Origin: Micavibrio sp. UBA7689
Lineage (GTDB): Bacteria > Pseudomonadota > Alphaproteobacteria > Micavibrionales > Micavibrionaceae
DNA length: 64,000 nucleotides
Reading direction: 5' to 3'
NCBI GenBank assembly: GCA_002482805.1
Contig: DLGR01000034.1
Location: 106,208 to 170,207, forward strand
Both the position numbers and the translations under genes were made by a program. Below are positions 51,748 through 58,628 of this stretch, piece by piece. The stretch's first letter is position 1. Each line of letters opens with the position of its first letter. The notes beneath the pieces were generated by a model. That model made no database searches. It was not told the DNA's origin and worked only from the letters and a program-made list of their open reading frames with translations.

Positions 51748-52944
51748 ATGACATTGAGCAACTCCATCGCCGCCATGAAAGAAGAATTCGCCGCTTACCG
51801 CCGTGAATTGCATCAGAATCCGCAAACTTCCTATGAGGAAGTTTTTGCGAGCGATTTCGTTGCCAAAAAACTCACCGAATGGGGCATTCCTCACAAGCGC
51901 GGCATAGCGGTCACGGGCATCGTTGCCACAATCGAAGGAAACAAAAGCGATTCAGGTAAAGCCATAGGTTTGCGCGCCGACATGGACGCACTCAACATGA
52001 CGGAAGAATCCGGCCAGCCTTGGGCTTCCAAAACACCTGGCAAAATGCACGGCTGTGGTCATGACGGGCATACGGCCATGTTGCTCGGCGCCGCAAAATA
52101 TCTTTCCGAAAACCGCAATTTTAACGGCAAGGTCCATTTGATTTTCCAGCCTGCCGAAGAAGGCGGCGCGGGCGCGATCCGCATGATTAAGGAAGGCTTG
52201 TTCAAGGAATTTCCGGTGGATGCCGTGTTCGGCATGCATAACTGGCCGGGCCTCACGATCGGCAAGGTAGGATTGCGAAACGGGCCTATTATGGCCTCAA
52301 CCAACACATTCGACATTGTTATCACCGGCAAAGGCGGACACGCCGCCTTCCCCCATCTTTCGGTAGATCCTATTCCGGCTACCGTGCAAATTGTTTCGGC
52401 CCTGCAAACCATCGTTTCGCGTCAGATCAATCCGCTCGACAATGCCGTTTTGTCGGTCACCAATTTCAACGCGGGATCGGGGGCATCGAACGTCATTCCC
52501 GATACGGCCAAACTGATTGGCACGTTCAGAACATTTACGCCGCAGACGCGCGCCTTTGTTGAAAAACGGATCGGAGAAATCACAAAAGGCATAGCTGCGT
52601 CTTTTGGCTGCACAGCCACGATTGCCATCAGCGACGGATACGATCCGACCATCAACACCCCGGATGAAACTGTATTCTGCACGCAAGTTTTGAAATCACT
52701 TATGGGCGAAAACAATGTCGATAACAATGTTGAACCCTGCATGGGTGCGGAAGATTTCGGCGCCATGCTTCAGGCCGTTCCGGGTTGTTATATATGGATG
52801 GGTCAAGGCGTCGAAGGAAAGCCGGATTCACCGCACAACAAATTCCTGCACAACACAGGCTATGACTTCAACGATGATTTAATTCCGATAGGCATCGAAT
52901 ACTGGGTCAAACTGACTGAAGCTGCCCTGCCCTTATCCAAATAG
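51748..52944 (+). CDS. M20 family amidohydrolase (hippurate hydrolase / N-acyl-L-amino acid amidohydrolase type)
   Basis: 398 aa. LHQNPQTSYEE...RADMDAL...HGCGHDGHTAMLLGAA...FQPAEEGGAGA. Confidence 0.88.
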   Translation: MTLSNSIAAMKEEFAAYRRELHQNPQTSYEEVFASDFVAKKLTEWGIPHKRGIAVTGIVATIEGNKSDSGKAIGLRADMDALNMTEESGQPWASKTPGKMHGCGHDGHTAMLLGAAKYLSENRNFNGKVHLIFQPAEEGGAGAIRMIKEGLFKEFPVDAVFGMHNWPGLTIGKVGLRNGPIMASTNTFDIVITGKGGHAAFPHLSVDPIPATVQIVSALQTIVSRQINPLDNAVLSVTNFNAGSGASNVIPDTAKLIGTFRTFTPQTRAFVEKRIGEITKGIAASFGCTATIAISDGYDPTINTPDETVFCTQVLKSLMGENNVDNNVEPCMGAEDFGAMLQAVPGCYIWMGQGVEGKPDSPHNKFLHNTGYDFNDDLIPIGIEYWVKLTEAALPLSK

Positions 52945-53607
52945 TCAGAGCTTGAGCGGCTCTACGGCCATGCCGCGTTCTTCCTTGGAAATGATCGTGA
53001 AATTGAACGCGATCGATATGCGGTCTTTTTCCGATTGGTGCGGCGTCACCGAATGCCACAAATAGGATGGGAATATAATTCCCATACCGGGGCGCGGGAA
53101 AAACTTCACATAGTTTTTTTCACTGAGCTCGGCCAGCGAAGCGTTGCCGCGCGGATCGTGCAAAATCAAAACACCCGGGTCTAACGCCCAATATCTTTTG
53201 GTGTCTTCCTGCACGAACAAATCCTGTTTTTCATTCACATCGGGAATATCGACATAATAAACGCCAGACACTTGCGCCTGATGGTTATGCGCGGGGACAT
53301 ATGCGCCTTTCTTGCCGTAGTTGGGAAACACATGCGTCTGCACGCCGAATTCGCCTTGGATGCCTTCGGCTTTAAGCCATGAAAGCATCCCATCCCACAT
53401 AAATTCTTTGAGCTTGGTCAGAACGGGATATTGATTGGAATGATCCATCATATCTTCAAGGTCGGCTATTTTTTCGAAATATTTGGAAGAGTATTTCTTT
53501 TCGGCGCGGAACATTTCGCGCAAACCTTCGACCATCACTTCGTCGCCGGAGTGTTTTGTAACAACTCTTGTGGGGAAATAAAGTTTATGATCCCAAGCCG
53601 CTTCCAT
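52945..53607 (-). CDS. putative 2OG-Fe(II) oxygenase superfamily protein (TIGR02466-like)
   Basis: 220 aa. HNHQAQVSGVYYV...FPSYLWHSVTPH fits the HxD/H...H facial triad pattern of this family. Confidence 0.6.
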   Translation of the reverse strand: MEAAWDHKLYFPTRVVTKHSGDEVMVEGLREMFRAEKKYSSKYFEKIADLEDMMDHSNQYPVLTKLKEFMWDGMLSWLKAEGIQGEFGVQTHVFPNYGKKGAYVPAHNHQAQVSGVYYVDIPDVNEKQDLFVQEDTKRYWALDPGVLILHDPRGNASLAELSEKNYVKFFPRPGMGIIFPSYLWHSVTPHQSEKDRISIAFNFTIISKEERGMAVEPLKL

Positions 53608-53650
53608 AGATATTATTAAAACAACAGCTTTTCGGCGGAGTCAATAAAAC

Positions 53651-54592
53651 CTATTGCGGAGCTAAGGCTGGTGCGGCTGAGGGTGCCTGCCCTGCAGCTC
53701 TGCGCAAGAACAGCGTGCCGGCACCTTCATCGGTCAGAAGTTCTTTCTCGATCGCCTGCTTGTCCGCGCCATTCAGTATGACCACACCGCCCACAGCAGG
53801 ATTGGAAGCTACGTCCATCGCGGCCTCGACTTTTAGTTTCATACCGCCGTAAATGGTACCATCGTCGATCCAGTGTCTCCAGTTATCCGTGTAGATATGC
53901 GAAATGCGTTTTTTGCTCTTATCGAGGACGGCATCAACGTTCGTACACAATATCAAACGCTGCGCGCCTAGCGAGATGGCGATTCCTGCCGCAACTTCAT
54001 CTGCATTGACGTTCATGCAAATACCGTCCTGCCCCATACTGATGGGATGAATGATCGGAATACTGTTCGCCGCCGTGAAGTAAGAAAGCTTCGCGCTGTC
54101 CACGTCCGTGAGCGTTCCCGTGCGGGAGTTCTCGAAACGTGGCTTCGCCGTTATCAGTCTGGAATCATTGCCGCCAAGCCCTATCGCATTCACATCCGCT
54201 CCAAGCTTGGCTGCTTCTTCATGAAACAGATTGACGATGCGGCGGTTGAGTTCGTTAAGGCAGCGGTGCGTAACTTCAAGAGTCGCCAGATCCGTAATGC
54301 GGGCATCCGTAACTTTGTCTTTTAACGGTTCTATCCCTGCGCGTTTCAATTCTTCATCGATCTGCGTTCCACCGCCATGAACCAGAACAACGCGCGCACC
54401 GAAATTTTTCAACGTGATCGCCTGTACCATCAGGTTACGAATAACGTCGTCCTGCGCCACCAACTCGCCGCCGAATTTGATGACGATGGTTTTGTCTCGG
54501 TACTTGGCGGCATAGCGCGCCGCTACCGTGTAAAAGTCGGGGGAAATGGTCGGCGGGGCCGCCGATACGCCGTCTGGGGAAGTCATACACAC
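53651..54592 (-). CDS. argB: acetylglutamate kinase
   Basis: 313 aa. IVIKFGGELV...VLVHGGG.QI...NVNADEVAAGIA. Confidence 0.92.
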   Translation of the reverse strand: MCMTSPDGVSAAPPTISPDFYTVAARYAAKYRDKTIVIKFGGELVAQDDVIRNLMVQAITLKNFGARVVLVHGGGTQIDEELKRAGIEPLKDKVTDARITDLATLEVTHRCLNELNRRIVNLFHEEAAKLGADVNAIGLGGNDSRLITAKPRFENSRTGTLTDVDSAKLSYFTAANSIPIIHPISMGQDGICMNVNADEVAAGIAISLGAQRLILCTNVDAVLDKSKKRISHIYTDNWRHWIDDGTIYGGMKLKVEAAMDVASNPAVGGVVILNGADKQAIEKELLTDEGAGTLFLRRAAGQAPSAAPALAPQ

Positions 54593-54655
54593 ACCTTGGT
54601 TTTCTTATTGATGATGTTATGTATAAAAATAATCTGGTTAACGTCAACAAATTAA

Positions 54656-54685
54656 TTGTAAAGGGATGGGTTTTTGCCTTATAAC
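54656..54685 (+). promoter_or_regulatory. candidate sigma70 promoter TTGTAA-N18-TATAAC (leader copy A)
   Basis: Conserved in copy B as TTGTAG-N17-TATAAC. The -10 ends 7 nt before the uORF ATG. Confidence 0.5.
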
Positions 54686-54692
54686 GGCCTCC

Positions 54693-54746
54693 ATGATCGA
54701 CATGGCCCACAGCATAATCTGCTCCCAGCGACGACGTACCGCCTGA
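54693..54746 (+). CDS. candidate 17-aa leader peptide A: MIDMAHSIICSQRRRTA
   Basis: ATG ATC GAC ATG GCC CAC AGC ATA ATC TGC TCC CAG CGA CGA CGT ACC GCC TGA. Same length, frame and stop context as copy B, with 9/17 residues identical. Confidence 0.55.
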   Translation: MIDMAHSIICSQRRRTA

Positions 54747-54826
54747 CCGCCCGGTTGGAATAGGTTCGGACGTGACGCCATTCGTCACATAATAAAAACG
54801 ATAAGCCCCCCACCGTAGCGGTCACC

Positions 54827-54865
54827 GAGACCTTCTCCCTCCCGAGAAAGGCTCCCCTGTTTTTT
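54827..54865 (+). terminator. attenuator terminator hairpin of leader A
   Basis: GAGACCTTCTC / GAGAAAGGCTC (10 bp, two bulges), loop CCTCCC, then CCCTG-TTTTTT. 24 nt upstream of the GNAT-A ORF. Confidence 0.5.
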
Positions 54866-54888
54866 CCTGACAACGCTGAACGATTACG

Positions 54889-55494
54889 GTGAAACCCATG
54901 TTAACGACCAATTTGGCCCTGAAGGCCATCCCTGAAGAGCAACCTCCCGAACCACAGCAGAGTTATCTGCTCATGACCAAGGCGGATATTCCCGCCTTCC
55001 TCGCCCTGCAGGCGAAAGTCATCGCGGCCTTGCCCGAAGACAAGAAGCACTATCTCAAACCCAGAACCGCAGAGGACCTCGAAGCCCATCTTTCGGCCGA
55101 CATGCCTGTCATCGTGGTCAAGGACCATGACGGCAAAATCATCGCGCAGGCGCTGGTCACCTTGTTCAACTCGCCCGCCGCGAAGAATCTCGGCGACTAC
55201 CCCAACATCGGCACGGATCCCAAGGCGGCGGTTCAGGCGGTTCAGGTAGATCCCGACGCGCGTGGCAAGAAGCTTTCGGAAGTGCTTCTAAATGCTGCCA
55301 AAATAGAAGCGGCCAAACTCGGCGCCGCCTCTTTGCTTGCCAAAGTCGCCACCGACAACGACAGCCAGAAGAGCTTTATCAGCACTCACTTCACAAAGGC
55401 GGCGGAGAACGTTTGGGACAAGGCCGGCCGCTACTTCGCGAACTATTTTCAGGTGGCATTGGCCAAGTCAGAGCCTCTTCTGAGGCCGGTTTAG
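54889..55494 (+). CDS. GNAT-family N-acetyltransferase, paralog A
   Basis: 201 aa (an alternative ATG at 54898 follows GGTGA). Motif A-like VQVDPDARGKKLSEVLLNAAKIEAAKLGA. Paralogous to 55795-56448. Confidence 0.65.
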   Translation: MKPMLTTNLALKAIPEEQPPEPQQSYLLMTKADIPAFLALQAKVIAALPEDKKHYLKPRTAEDLEAHLSADMPVIVVKDHDGKIIAQALVTLFNSPAAKNLGDYPNIGTDPKAAVQAVQVDPDARGKKLSEVLLNAAKIEAAKLGAASLLAKVATDNDSQKSFISTHFTKAAENVWDKAGRYFANYFQVALAKSEPLLRPV

Positions 55495-55553
55495 CATGTT
55501 GCAATTGTGTCACACCTGTGGCGGAGATTTTTTGGCCAAGGGGCAATTTATTA

Positions 55554-55582
55554 TTGTAGTGACCGTCACTTAGGCGTATAAC
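55554..55582 (+). promoter_or_regulatory. candidate sigma70 promoter TTGTAG-N17-TATAAC (leader copy B)
   Basis: The -10 ends 6 nt before the uORF ATG at 55589. Confidence 0.5.
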
Positions 55583-55588
55583 AAGGAC

Positions 55589-55642
55589 ATGATTTTGATG
55601 GACCACAACATAATCAATTCGAGAACCCGAAGTACGATCTGA
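55589..55642 (+). CDS. candidate 17-aa leader peptide B: MILMDHNIINSRTRSTI
   Basis: ATG ATT TTG ATG GAC CAC AAC ATA ATC AAT TCG AGA ACC CGA AGT ACG ATC TGA. The stop lies in the conserved cTGACCGCCCG block. Confidence 0.55.
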   Translation: MILMDHNIINSRTRSTI

Positions 55643-55722
55643 CCGCCCGCGTGGTTCAGGATCGGCAGTGGGTACATCTTCGCTGCATTTAAAACGAACA
55701 GCCTTCCACCGCTAGCGGTCAC

Positions 55723-55762
55723 GAGACCCCCTCCCTCCCAGAGAAGGGCTCTTTTGTTTTTT
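55723..55762 (+). terminator. attenuator terminator hairpin of leader B
   Basis: GAGACCCCCTC / GAGAAGGGCTC, loop CCTCCCA, followed immediately by TTTTGTTTTTT. Confidence 0.6.
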
Positions 55763-55794
55763 ACTCACTGCAAAACAAAAGACGTTAGAAAGAA

Positions 55795-56448
55795 GTGGTT
55801 CGCACCATGTTTAAAGCCAATTTCATTGAGAAAGTCGATCCGGACCCTTACCCGCGCGGTAGCGGCTCCTCGGTTGTACTGCTCACCAAAAGAGACATCC
55901 CTGATTTCCTGAATCTGCAACAACAGATTTGGAACGATTTGCCTCTGCGCAAGAAAGACCACTTGAAGGTTTTCTCGGTGCAGGAAATCGTCGACCACAT
56001 GGACGCGGGCATGCCCGTTCTGGCCATCCGCGACTATAATGGCGGCTTGCTGGCGCAGGCAGTTCTCTCCCTGCCCTTCGACAAATACGGTAACCCGTAT
56101 CTTGACGATCACCCCATGCTCGAAGGCTATGATGACGGCATTTCGGTGCTCGAATCGCTTTGCGTGCGTCCCGATGTTGCACACCAGCATCTGGCCGACA
56201 TGCTTTTGGCCTATGCGCAGGGTCTTGCAACGCAGCAAGGATCGCCCAGCATTCTGGCCAAGGTGTCGGACGAGCCCATGCTCGGTGCCGAATCCTTTGA
56301 CCGTTCGGGTTTTGTGCAGACGCTCTGTGAACTGAATATCGACATCGATATCCCCGTTCACTTCTATCAGTGGCTGAAATTCCGCGAGAGCGACGAGAAA
56401 TACATGGATCCGAACAACTATCCGGAATACCTGTACGACATGCACTAG
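55795..56448 (+). CDS. GNAT-fold protein, paralog B (degenerate acetyl-CoA P-loop)
   Basis: 217 aa. LLTKRDIPDFLNLQQQIW..LP..KKDHLK...MPVLAIRDYNGGLLAQAVLSL aligns with paralog A. Motif A reads VRPDVAHQHLADMLL instead of R-G-x-G/A. Confidence 0.55.
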   Translation: MVRTMFKANFIEKVDPDPYPRGSGSSVVLLTKRDIPDFLNLQQQIWNDLPLRKKDHLKVFSVQEIVDHMDAGMPVLAIRDYNGGLLAQAVLSLPFDKYGNPYLDDHPMLEGYDDGISVLESLCVRPDVAHQHLADMLLAYAQGLATQQGSPSILAKVSDEPMLGAESFDRSGFVQTLCELNIDIDIPVHFYQWLKFRESDEKYMDPNNYPEYLYDMH

Positions 56449-56455
56449 ATAAATT

Positions 56456-56514
56456 AACGTTTCTCCCTATATAATAGAAGGACGCAAACCCTTCTAAAAA
56501 ATGGGAGAAACGTT
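56456..56514 (+). repeat. 12-bp perfect inverted repeat AACGTTTCTCCC...GGGAGAAACGTT enclosing a 6-bp inner hairpin; its 3' arm contains the argD Shine-Dalgarno
   Basis: Arms at 56456-56467 and 56503-56514. Inner stem AGAAGG/CCTTCT at 56476-56481/56490-56495. TTT and then the ATG (56518) follow. Confidence 0.7.
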
Positions 56515-56517
56515 TTT

Positions 56518-57711
56518 ATGGCCGACGCCGGTTTCCTAGATCACGCCAACGACATCCTTATAAACGTATACGGCTTCTGGCCTGTCCAGATGGCAAAGGG
56601 CAAAGGCGTCTATCTCTACGACACCGAAGGACACAAATATCTCGATTTCGGCGCGGGCATCGCGGTCAACAATCTCGGTTATGCCCACCCCGTCTATACC
56701 AAGGCTCTCAAGAAACAGATTGATAAGCTCCATATGGGGCTTTGCTACATCGCCGATGAAAAACGCATCGCAGCGGCGGAAACGATTCTGGCGATTTCCG
56801 AATTCGATCAGGTGTTCTTTTGCTCTACGGGCGCGGAAGCCGTCGAAGGCGCGTTAAAGACCGCCCGCAAATGGGCCACCGAAACGCACGGCGCGGACAA
56901 ACATGAATTCGTCTATATGAAGAACTCCTTCCACGGGCGCACGATGGGCGCGCTCTCCGTGATCGGCCAGCAACATTACCGCGACGGCTTCGAACCCTTG
57001 CTTCAGGGCACGCGCATGGCGGAATTCAACAATCTCGACAGCGTGAAAAAACTCGTCTCCGCCAAAACCGCGGCGATCATTCTGGAACCCGTGATGGGCG
57101 AAGGCGGCATCATTCCCGCCACGCCCGAATTTCTCCATGGCCTGCGCGCGCTGTGCGACGAACACGACATTGCGTTGATATTCGATGAAGTCCAGTGCGG
57201 TATGGGCCGCATCGGCGAAATCTTCGCCTATGAACATTACGGCTTAGTACCAGACCTGATCTGTCTGGCCAAAGGTCTTGGCGCGGGCTTCCCCGTCGGC
57301 GCCTATATGGGCAAAAAGAAATTCACCTCGCACATCACGCCCGGCTCTCACGGCTCCACCTATGGCGGCAATCCGCTGGCGACCACGGCGGTCACCACCG
57401 TTATCAAGGAAATGCTCAAACCCGGTTTCATGGATAACGTGAACAAGGTGGGTCAGGTTTTGAAAGACGGGCTGGAAGAGATCGCGCGCGACAGCAATCT
57501 TCTTTCCAACGTGCGAGGTCTGGGTATGCTGCTCGCCGCCGACTATAACGGCGGACCCGTGAAGGATTTTGTGAAGAAGTGCCTCAAGAACGGCTTGATC
57601 GTACTTTCCTGCGGTGAAAACGCGGTCCGCATCGTTCCGCCGCTTATTTTGACGGAAAAACAGGCCAAAGAAGGCCTCGCCATCCTGAAAAAGACGCTGG
57701 CACAGGTTTAA
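56518..57711 (+). CDS. argD: acetylornithine aminotransferase
   Basis: 397 aa, class III PLP aminotransferase. LIFDEVQCGMGRIG...LAKGLGAGFP...THGSTYGGNPLA. Confidence 0.9.
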   Translation: MADAGFLDHANDILINVYGFWPVQMAKGKGVYLYDTEGHKYLDFGAGIAVNNLGYAHPVYTKALKKQIDKLHMGLCYIADEKRIAAAETILAISEFDQVFFCSTGAEAVEGALKTARKWATETHGADKHEFVYMKNSFHGRTMGALSVIGQQHYRDGFEPLLQGTRMAEFNNLDSVKKLVSAKTAAIILEPVMGEGGIIPATPEFLHGLRALCDEHDIALIFDEVQCGMGRIGEIFAYEHYGLVPDLICLAKGLGAGFPVGAYMGKKKFTSHITPGSHGSTYGGNPLATTAVTTVIKEMLKPGFMDNVNKVGQVLKDGLEEIARDSNLLSNVRGLGMLLAADYNGGPVKDFVKKCLKNGLIVLSCGENAVRIVPPLILTEKQAKEGLAILKKTLAQV

Positions 57712-57731
57712 GTTTCCGCTATAAATCTCCT

Positions 57732-58628
57732 ATGACCAACCATTTCCTCGATTTCGCGGATATTCCCGCCGCGACCCTGCGCGCCATTCTCGATGATGCC
57801 CATCGCCAGAAGAAGGAAAAGCGCAACCCCCGTCAGGTGCTCGAAGGTCTCTCGCTCGCGATGATGTTCGACAAGCGCTCCACGCGCACGCGCATCTCAT
57901 TCGAGGTCGCGATGAAACAACTCGGCGGCCACACCATCGTCATGGATATGCAGAACATGCAAATCACGGGCGCCGAAAGCCCCGAAGATACCGCAAAGGT
58001 TCTCTCGCGTTTCGTCGATGCCATCATGATACGCTGCTCTGATCAGGATATACTTCATGAACTTGCAAAATACGCGACCATTCCGATCATCAACGGCATG
58101 ACGGACAAATCCCATCCCTGCCAGATCATGGCGGACCTCATGACCATCGAGGAAAAAATCGGTGATGTGAAAGGCAAGAAGATCGCTTGGTTCGGTGATT
58201 ACAACAATGTCTCGCGTACCTTCGTTCAGGCGTCCAAGAAATTCGGGTTCGATTTCGTCGCCGCCCTGCCGTCGCAACTGCATCTTAAGGCCGACATGGG
58301 CACGCTTGTCACGGACGATCCGAAACTCGCGGCGAAGGATGCCGATGCTTTGGTCACCGACACATGGGTATCTATGGGACAGGAAGGAAAGTCGATCGAT
58401 ATGTTCCGTCCCTATCAGGTAACCAAGGAATTGATGGATCTGGCCAAACCGCACGCTGTCTTCATGCATTGTATGCCTGTGCACAAGGATGAGGAAGTGT
58501 CCGAGGAAGTGCTGCGTGGACCCGCCAATGTCATGTACGACGAGGCCGAAAACCGCCTGCACATACAAAAAGCCATACTGGCATGGTGTCTGTCCGATGC
58601 GGGCGTTAAAATCAGCCGCTCCGCGTAA
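57732..58628 (+). CDS. argF: ornithine carbamoyltransferase
   Basis: 298 aa with STRTR, HPCQ and FMHCMP motifs. Confidence 0.92.
   Translation: MTNHFLDFADIPAATLRAILDDAHRQKKEKRNPRQVLEGLSLAMMFDKRSTRTRISFEVAMKQLGGHTIVMDMQNMQITGAESPEDTAKVLSRFVDAIMIRCSDQDILHELAKYATIPIINGMTDKSHPCQIMADLMTIEEKIGDVKGKKIAWFGDYNNVSRTFVQASKKFGFDFVAALPSQLHLKADMGTLVTDDPKLAAKDADALVTDTWVSMGQEGKSIDMFRPYQVTKELMDLAKPHAVFMHCMPVHKDEEVSEEVLRGPANVMYDEAENRLHIQKAILAWCLSDAGVKISRSA

Follow-up and report, generated by a model that had tools for sequence, protein, structure and literature searches.

How is the second GNAT gene of an arginine-biosynthesis cluster controlled, and why does the leader that precedes it occur twice? This question is raised by a 64,000-nucleotide stretch of Micavibrio sp. 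UBA7689 (contig DLGR01000034.1, positions 106,208 to 170,207; hereafter the window), in which one leader, copy A, precedes the GNAT A gene and a related one, copy B (positions 55554-55794), precedes GNAT B, argD and argF (Table 1). Each copy combines a promoter, a short open reading frame (ORF), an RNA domain of four nested helices (P1-P4) that begins at the stop codon of the ORF, and a terminator-like hairpin (T). Our findings point toward a ribosome-mediated, arginine-responsive attenuator of the GNAT-argD-argF unit of Micavibrio-like predators, with P1-P4 as the putative ON conformer, an interpretation to which we give somewhat better than an even chance. Copy B itself is, judging from sequence comparisons, a functional but diverged paralogue of this leader, and its response to arginine is probably weaker, reduced or altered. 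A preliminary description of copy B had placed its promoter, ATG, ORF, P1, P2, P4, hairpin and T run, and all of these coordinates are correct in the sequence.

The leader belongs to a small and well-defined family. Homologues were gathered from contigs encoding relatives of GNAT A, from a degenerate DNA pattern scan of species-representative genomes and from a scan of JGI metagenomes, the latter giving only one contig; individual loci are designated by L and a number. The genome scan returned 65 stretches; on inspection about 55 proved to be chance matches in GC-rich genomes and were dropped, the true matches coming from metagenome-assembled genomes (MAGs) labelled Micavibrio and from L031 and L052, labelled only Alphaproteobacteria and only Pseudomonadota, respectively. 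When a covariance model built on the P1-P4 domain was searched against the window and the gathered loci, 18 leader copies were found in 15 stretches from Micavibrio-like genomes and metagenomes at 79-109 bits (copy A, 97.0 bits; copy B, 87.9 bits), with the next-best match at 16.6 bits. No further copies, and none before other genes, were found in the 64-kb window or in the loci. The architecture that had been described as repeated in copies A and B is indeed shared by both, chance being excluded by these scores, and homologous leaders do exist elsewhere. In every locus with downstream sequence the leader stands directly before a GNAT gene, and argD and argF then follow where the contig continues. 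Rfam 15 gave no meaningful match, either at gathering thresholds over the whole window or at relaxed thresholds over positions 54500-56000.

Covariation supports the predicted helices P1, P2 and P4. In an alignment of 16 sequences evaluated for the nested arrangement P1(P2(P3(P4))), 93.7% of the cells are paired, five pairs show changes on both sides, and the covariation score is 0.187 against 0.093 in shuffles, a value reached by 0 of 500 shuffles; slid registers pair at most 56%. In addition, the nested architecture was recovered by RNAfold separately in each of 15 sequences with the ORF masked, and the folding energies of single sequences are unexceptional (z = -1.5 to -2.0). P2 occurs as CGGU/ACCG, GCG/CGC, GCA/UGC, CG-UU/AA-CG and CG-CU/AG-CG; P4 shows U-A/C-G alternation, loop insertions in L002 and L022 and different bases in the copies that we call B-type (those of the window, L027, L001 and L070). 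The compensatory differences reported for the helices of copies A and B are therefore present in P2 and P4 but not in P1, which is identical in the two; within the family, P1 has a compensatory change (C-G to U-A) only in L001B and a near-identical L070 copy. In this regard, the earlier statement that structure is kept while sequence changes was borne out by the alignment. Besides its helices, the domain contains an unpaired A-rich strand of 20 nt, CACAAUAAAAACGAUAAGCC in the A-type copies, which is almost invariant (window positions 55687-55703 and 54792-54808), and this across lineages with saturated synonymous sites. The strand has AAN repeats, as are found in Hfq or S1 binding sites or in RNase E target sites.

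The leader ORF is, as its substitution pattern shows, apparently translated. In each of the 15 distinct leaders its frame is open and the +1 frame closed; in 13 of these the distance from ATG to TGA is exactly 51 nt, and the length is kept at 16-18 codons. Particularly, in the clade formed by L004, L016, L022, L031 and L032, codons 6-12 (HDIVNSQ) give a synonymous divergence (pS) of 0.74 and a non-synonymous one (pN) of 0.047. This large excess of synonymous change argues that the ORF is translated, as previously proposed, and that the peptide itself is constrained in that clade. Over the whole family the pN/pS of the leader peptide is 0.62. Peptides A and B share 9 of 17 residues, in agreement with the first count, and His6, Ile8-Ile9 and Ser11, to which particular importance had been given, are not kept across the family (L036, L060, L002 and L052).

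What recurs instead is a run of arginine codons. Most A-type peptides end in R-R-R-x-x-stop, as in MIDMAHSIICSQRRRTA, MILMCHDIVNSQRRRMI, MSTLSHDIVNSQRRRTT and MIELSHDIVNSLRRRIS and, with the same R-R-R, in L036 (MAQLIFHTVTPSRRRTI), L002 (MENASQIITVAQRRRTI), L052 (MNSCMHHIAATRRRTI) and L060 (MNTVSHDSLSLQRRRIR); that of L071 has R-R-P-T-R (CGA-CGA-CCU). The first two codons of the run are always CGA-CGA in the 12 distinct A-type leaders, and the third is CGN (CGU or CGA) in nearly all, CGA being used for 36 of the 776 Arg codons of the window ORFs (4.6%) and AGA for 7.3%. B-type peptides have R-T-R-S-T-I or L-E-R-S-T-I and keep only the invariant CGA, which in copy B lies at 55628-55630, by alignment the family-invariant codon four codons before the stop. 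From this comparison, R-R-R (CGA-CGA-CGN) is taken as ancestral and copy B as degenerate, having lost two of three Arg codons; the R-x-R element that had been noted near the end of both peptides is present, but it understates the original run. The stop is UGA followed by C or U in every aligned leader; UGA-C is uncommon in the window ORFs (2 of 51) and is a slow stop context.

Near-universal features of the family are thus Arg codons in the form of rare CGA, a fixed distance to the stop, and a stop codon inside P1. A GC-rich distant relative, L072, has no recognisable P1-P4, a different leader structure and no U-run terminator (L072:481-640), and keeps a 16-codon ORF before GNAT-argD, MRHFSSIFPVPNRRSR-stop, which ends CGCUGACC (N-R-R-S-R-UGA-CC). 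Together, the pattern of Arg codons, CGA usage and stop spacing and the N-R-R-S-R-stop ending of L072 point first to codon-level sensing of Arg-tRNA. The preference formerly given to an arrest peptide over codon starvation is thus not supported, although peptide-level selection in one clade means that an arrest component is possible.

Comparison of the two window copies indicates that the leader is more constrained than the genes, in line with the earlier suggestion that it is at least as constrained. Copies A and B are 63% identical in the ORF, 67% in P1-P4, 61% in the terminator and 64% over the whole leader, against 45% in the GNAT coding sequence (CDS) and 47% in the promoter. Between the window and L001, leader A is 99.4% identical and its CDS 87.5%, whereas leader B is 83% identical and its CDS 72%; in the most distant pairs the leaders retain 64-72% and the CDS 50-57%, the leader exceeding the CDS in every comparison. 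Neither of the two sequence-based conditions that would have refuted the preliminary description applies: leader and CDS are not equally similar, as a recent tandem duplication with neutral decay would predict, and homologous leaders are not lacking elsewhere. Moreover, B-type leaders are retained in at least three lineages, and it is copy B, not copy A, that stands before argD-argF, with its own promoter behind a terminator-like hairpin.

These features allow us to propose a model in which the ribosome on the leader ORF would report the supply of arginine. The footprint of a ribosome is generally taken to extend about 12 nt from the A-site codon, counted from its first base. On that basis, a ribosome at codons 13-15 ends at nt 48-54 of the leader, P1 starting at nt 52, and one at the UGA occupies nt 52 to about 64, which takes in the 5' strands of P1 and P2; the spacing equals that in trpL. 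At low arginine, the ribosome would wait for Arg-tRNA at codons 13-15 and leave P1 largely free, and because P1 starts at nt 52, P1-P4 should still be able to fold under such a stalled ribosome. When arginine is sufficient, the ribosome would reach the UGA, block the 5' strands of P1 and P2 and leave P1-P4 open. Taking the Arg codons as the sensor, this geometry makes P1-P4 the likely low-arginine conformer, in which expression is expected to be ON.

The open domain would then be the OFF conformer. In this state, the freed 3' strand (AAGCCUCCCA...GCGGUCA; AAGCC...GCGGUCA) may pair with the ribosome-binding region of the GNAT gene, where a UGACCGC-like sequence mimics the P1 5' strand ahead of the Shine-Dalgarno sequence; such pairing would turn translation off. 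Hairpin T, flanked by single-stranded RNA, could also terminate transcription. In the ON state P1-P4 would be closed and the ribosome-binding site (RBS) free, and T, with a stable helix 1-3 nt from its base, may be hindered from closing fully within RNA polymerase.

Pairing of the P1-P4 3' strand with the RBS region was computed as strong in L036, L004 and L031 (-22 to -24 kcal/mol in L004 and L036, the latter at -23.8, with z about -3 to -5) and as moderate in copy A of the window (winA), L040, L052 and L060; in 5 of 12 sequences it reaches or passes the 5-6% tail of RBS-like controls from the genome. Its sign is the one that the model calls for. In copy B, GACGTTAG (55781-55788) is complementary to CTAGCG-G-TC of the P1 3' strand. 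As a negative control, the 3' end of the ORF pairs with none of those RBS targets; a direct pairing between ORF 3' end and RBS, as in the mycobacterial model discussed below, is absent. The U tract of T (CUUUUGUUUU) is in turn complementary to the A tract AAAACAAAAG, 10-20 nt downstream, forming a further hairpin, H5, with equivalents in L004, L016, L022, L031, L032, L040, L060 and L071. Its arms co-vary (UCUUUUU with AAAAAGA in L016 and L031; CUUUUG with CAAAAG in L040), and H5 would stack on T, bringing the RBS region beside the P1 3' strand.

All leaders checked have a hairpin at the position of T, its sequence being unrelated in L052, L036 and L002, and in most of them it starts 1-3 nt past P1. 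About 9 of 13 have a U-rich tail immediately behind it, whereas in winA, L036 and L002 the tail is weak or displaced; the hairpin of copy B is weak (about -5 to -8 kcal/mol). Sequences and folds were also inspected for a P1 that reaches into the base of T, for a hairpin joining the Ile-Val and Arg codons and for pairing of the A-rich strand with the U tract; none of these held throughout the family.

Several observations weigh against the attenuator as we propose it. There is no antiterminator that shares sequence with T, and P1-P4 and T do not overlap; under equilibrium folding with ribosome masks at 11 positions, T stays formed and no switch between terminator and antiterminator appears, so that the terminator/antiterminator logic of the preliminary description found no confirmation. 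The best alternative that involves T, GGUUCGG with CCGAGACC, forms with P1 open and thus has the opposite regulatory sign. Half of the sequences, copy B among them (-14.3 kcal/mol, not significant), show weak or insignificant pairing of the 3' strand with the RBS, and we know of no precedent for steric hindrance of a terminator by a closed helix such as P1. The near-invariance of the A-rich strand is left unexplained by the model. B-type copies have lost the Arg run and are conserved all the same, which indicates that the RNA domain or the peptide is valued beyond the counting of Arg codons. Finally, translation of the ORF probably starts leaderless, as judged from promoter spacing alone.

Some of these difficulties would be relieved if P1-P4 were a ribosome-gated, cis-acting domain by which the neighbouring terminator is suppressed although the two have no sequence in common, either by docking on RNA polymerase in a put-like manner or by sterically blocking the completion of T. 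Such a domain would explain the near-invariant paired and unpaired nucleotides, the 1-3-nt spacing and the missing overlapping antiterminator, and we regard it as unlikely, though well short of negligible. A contribution of the nascent peptide, with HDIVNS-RRR responding to arginine or ornithine within the exit tunnel, could be added to this reading. A low but appreciable probability is likewise given to the reverse logic, in which P1-P4 would act as an anti-antiterminator by sequestering GGUUCGG, which would otherwise pair with CCGAGACC, where T has its base. With a ribosome located at codons 16-17 or at the stop, P1 and P2 would then remain open, the antiterminator would form and transcription would read through, with arginine acting by timing, as slow passage over the CGA codons would place the ribosome at the stop region just as the P1 3' strand emerges. 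When nt 1 to UGA+15 were masked and T still lacked its 3' arm, the minimum-energy folds of winA, L040A, L032 and L036 contained an 8-bp pairing, with one bulge, of AGGUUCGG with CCGAGACCU, and GGUUC paired with GAACC in L016 and L031; GGUUCGG is invariant in A-type copies, a small alternative pairing of GGUC in the P1 3' strand with GACC in T works in the same direction, and the uncommon, slow UGA-C context is in keeping with a ribosome that lingers at the stop. However, a starvation stall at codons 13-14 would free P1 and turn the operon off, which implies a non-monotonic response. Besides, L002 and L052 lack the complementarity and every B-type copy disrupts it (GGAUCGG), most sequences retain T at equilibrium, and P3 and P4 form before the target strand is transcribed.

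The sensor could alternatively be the nascent peptide, H-D-I-V-N-S-Q-R-R-R, with or without free arginine or ornithine, stalling the ribosome at or near the UGA and keeping P1 open, to which we assign a low probability; such a leader would be akin to SpeFL with ornithine, TnaC with tryptophan or the fungal arginine attenuator peptide. The strong amino-acid selection on codons 6-12 in one clade would fit, as would the retention of (D/N)-I-I-N-S...R-S-T-I in B-type copies that have no Arg run, the fixed ORF length and the constant UGA followed by C or U; but the family-wide pN/pS is not that of a conserved peptide, with L036, L060, L002 and L052 differing at most positions before the Arg run, and conservation of the rare CGA-CGA extends to its nucleotides, a constraint that arrest does not require. 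A stall induced by arginine at the stop would, furthermore, keep P1 open, and the sign comes out right only via the weakly supported RBS pairing. A probability lower still is left for P1-P4 as a riboswitch that binds a ligand, or as an RNA bound by a protein (an anti-antiterminator target of the PyrR type), with the small ORF secondary: the high conservation of paired and unpaired positions, including the A-rich strand, the covarying helices of a structured domain, the terminator-like hairpin directly after it and the persistence of the domain in B-type copies without the Arg run are all as expected, yet no Rfam 15 class is matched at the gathering thresholds or at relaxed ones, T has no sequence in common with the P1 3' strand, in contrast to the expression platform of a riboswitch, the distribution is tiny (one clade, one gene), and L072 keeps the Arg-codon ORF and not the domain. 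The stop codon of the translated ORF lies inside P1, so that every round of translation would unfold the domain. That copy B is a decaying by-product of tandem duplication with no function of its own seems very unlikely; its loss of two Arg codons, its weak hairpin T and its poor candidate antiterminator and RBS pairings would suit decay, and are outweighed by the retention of B-type leaders in at least three lineages with higher conservation than their own gene (83% against 72%, window versus L001), by the compensatory C-G to U-A change in P1 of one of them and by the position of copy B, rather than A, before argD-argF. Hardly any credence is given to an antibiotic-sensing leader in which an R/K-x-R/K arrest motif, as in erm-type leaders, would induce a GNAT resistance acetyltransferase. 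R-R-R and R-T-R fit the +x+ pattern noted for resistance leaders (PMC8632094), and the closest solved GNATs include phosphinothricin and aminoglycoside acetyltransferases, but the GNAT gene is always found in argB/argD/argF synteny, in one genome as an ArgB fusion, and no mobile element or resistance island is present at the locus.

If the attenuator model is correct, the leader would be an arginine counterpart of trpL and hisL. In model bacteria, arginine biosynthesis is a textbook case of repressor control (ArgR/AhrC) and not of attenuation, and our literature searches found no arginine leader-peptide attenuator of a biosynthetic operon. What we have here is most likely a principle well known for other amino acids, namely ribosome-reported amino-acid supply, in a case, arginine synthesis, that we did not find described. 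Similar to trpL, hisL, leuL, pheL and thrL, the leader contains a short ORF in which a run of codons for the amino acid made by the operon is placed 3-5 codons ahead of the stop (the trpL peptide ends W-W-R-T-S-stop, the present ones R-R-R-x-x-stop), a hairpin and U run precede the first gene and, by geometry in the present case, stalled and terminating ribosomes expose different RNA strands. It differs from these leaders in the amino acid, in its apparently leaderless start, in lacking an overlapping antiterminator and in that the ribosome-gated helix closes an 80-nt invariant four-helix domain that shares no sequence with the terminator. The reliance on rare, wobble-decoded CGA codons and the coupling of a ribosome to a large invariant RNA domain that does not overlap the terminator would be further unusual features.

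Among leader ORFs described elsewhere, cysS-type upstream ORF motifs of alphaproteobacteria are grouped with the leader-peptide attenuators (PMC8632094), and leaderless polycysteine small ORFs of mycobacteria combine ribosome pausing with RBS-sequestering structures (Canestrari et al., bioRxiv 10.1101/834739). The latter resemble our leader in being leaderless first-cistron ORFs with a run of codons for one amino acid before genes of the metabolism of that amino acid, and in that pausing alters an RNA structure that hides the downstream RBS. In mycobacteria, however, the paused ribosome itself blocks the sequestering duplex, whereas here it would permit the competing P1-P4 to form; a terminator-like hairpin is also present here, and phylum and amino acid differ. 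In Salmonella/E. coli orf34 (SpeFL), pausing at consecutive Arg codons senses arginine and remodels the speF leader into alternative folds (PMC6386406), a likeness in the mode of sensing. The speF gene, on the other hand, is catabolic and inducible, the outputs are Rho termination and RNase G decay, the peptide has 34 residues, and that leader has no sequence or structural similarity to ours. Ornithine in the exit tunnel is a further signal for SpeFL.

The fungal arginine attenuator peptide (upstream ORF of arg-2/CPA1) likewise precedes an arginine-biosynthesis gene and acts at the stop codon; it differs in being eukaryotic, in working through scanning and nonsense-mediated decay, and in sensing free arginine via the nascent peptide, with no similarity to the present peptide, which in turn is not conserved family-wide. 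As for the RNA domain, the nascent put RNA of HK022 is conserved and folded and sits immediately upstream of a terminator, the two having no sequence in common (PMC9378689), and PyrR-type leaders have a three-element layout of domain, alternative pairing and terminator; the likeness to both is one of layout only, and action on polymerase or protein binding in our leader would be pure conjecture.

Table 1. Coordinates in the window of the leader copies, their parts and the surrounding genes.
Feature	Position	Strand	Remarks
Copy B, promoter	-35 TTGTAG 55554-55559; -10 TATAAC 55577-55582	+	17-nt spacer
Copy B, leader ORF	55589-55642	+	17 codons and TGA (55640-55642), MILMDHNIINSRTRSTI
Copy B, residual (putative regulatory) Arg codons	55622-55630	+	AGA-ACC-CGA (R-T-R)
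Copy B, P1-P4 domain	55640-55721	+	Covariation, folding and covariance model
Copy B, P1	55640-55646 with 55715-55721		TGACCGC/GCGGTCA; the ORF stop TGA is its first three bases
Copy B, P2	55649-55654 with 55706-55712		GCGTGG with CCACCGC
Copy B, P3	55659-55660 with 55702-55703		GG with CC
Copy B, P4	55665-55670 with 55681-55686		GCAGTG with CGCTGC
Copy B, A-rich strand	55687-55699		
Copy B, hairpin T and T run	55723-55762	+	Hairpin 55723-55751, base 1 nt after P1; T run TTTTGTTTTTT 55752-55762
Copy B, hairpin H5	55751-55781	+	CTTTTGTTTT 55751-55760 with AAAACAAAAG 55772-55781
GNAT B ribosome-binding region	55781-55809	+	Purine-rich GAAGTGG 55792-55798; ATG 55807
Copy A, whole leader	54656-54888	+	Precedes GNAT A
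Copy A, promoter	-35 54656-54661; -10 54680-54685	+	
Copy A, leader ORF	54693-54746	+	MIDMAHSIICSQRRRTA; keeps the putatively ancestral CGA-CGA-CGT
Copy A, P1-P4 domain	54744-54824	+	
Copy A, hairpin T	54827-54854	+	
Copy A, T run	54860-54865	+	
M20 amidohydrolase gene	51748-52944	+	Member of the arginine-biosynthesis cluster 51748-58628
2OG-oxygenase-like gene	52945-53607	-	2OG-Fe(II), TIGR02466 family
argB	53651-54592	-	
GNAT A gene	54898-55494	+	Preceded by leader A
Terminator-like hairpin and T run	55508-55532	+	Hairpin 55508-55523; after GNAT A
GNAT B gene	55807-56448	+	ATG 55807; first gene of the GNAT B-argD-argF unit
argD	56518-57711		Downstream of GNAT B
argF	57732-58628		Downstream of argD

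The division of labour between the two leaders follows from the terminator-like hairpin between GNAT A and promoter B, the sequence of which is also present upstream of the B leaders of L001 and L027. Given its position, leader A would control GNAT A alone and leader B the GNAT B-argD-argF unit. In the 14 promoters that could be aligned, a -35-like (A/C)TTG(C/T)N stands at a constant distance from the ATG, and a -10-like hexamer lies 6-8 nt before the ATG in most, being poor or farther away in L052 and L002; a simple consensus scan did not call the promoter of copy B. No Shine-Dalgarno sequence precedes any leader ORF, the ATG of copy B following its -10 after 6 nt.

An AT-rich element, GCAATTTATTATTG, overlaps the -35 of copy B. 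The corresponding pattern, TCAA-W8-(A/C)TTG, overlaps the -35 of most leader promoters (54645-54661 and 55543-55559 in the window; also L004, L022, L027, L032 and L060) and could be an UP element or an ARG-box-like operator. Additionally, where argB is divergently transcribed, a motif TTATGTATA(A/C) followed by an A/T run is found 55-65 nt upstream of the leader ATG, at about 54615-54635 in the window and at equal distance in L022, L032, L040 and L060. Its left half resembles the ARG box (TNTGAAT), to which it could correspond; alternatively, it could belong to the argB promoter.

The GNAT proteins themselves are rare. GNAT A and GNAT B share 35% identity as proteins, and a search of 5.8 billion proteins yielded only 6 relatives of GNAT A, including one from a Micavibrio MAG. 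The closest solved GNATs by sequence include acetyltransferases of the phosphinothricin/methionine-sulfoximine and aminoglycoside types. The genes are always found among argB, argD and argF, with the M20 gene near, and in L052 the GNAT is fused to the N-terminus of the ArgB domain (L052:5838-7256, minus strand). On the basis of this fusion, the GNAT is argued to be the missing N-acetylglutamate synthase, and the unit to be biosynthetic, which makes this protein a candidate for a new, short N-acetylglutamate synthase. The insertion of a 2OG-Fe(II) oxygenase-like gene between the M20 gene and argB is seen only in the lineage of the window, L001 and L070. In this context, M. aeruginosavorus ARL-13 was reported to be without arginine biosynthesis (PMC3189940), in contrast to the Micavibrio-labelled MAGs examined here, which carry argB, argD, argF, the M20 deacylase and the GNAT.

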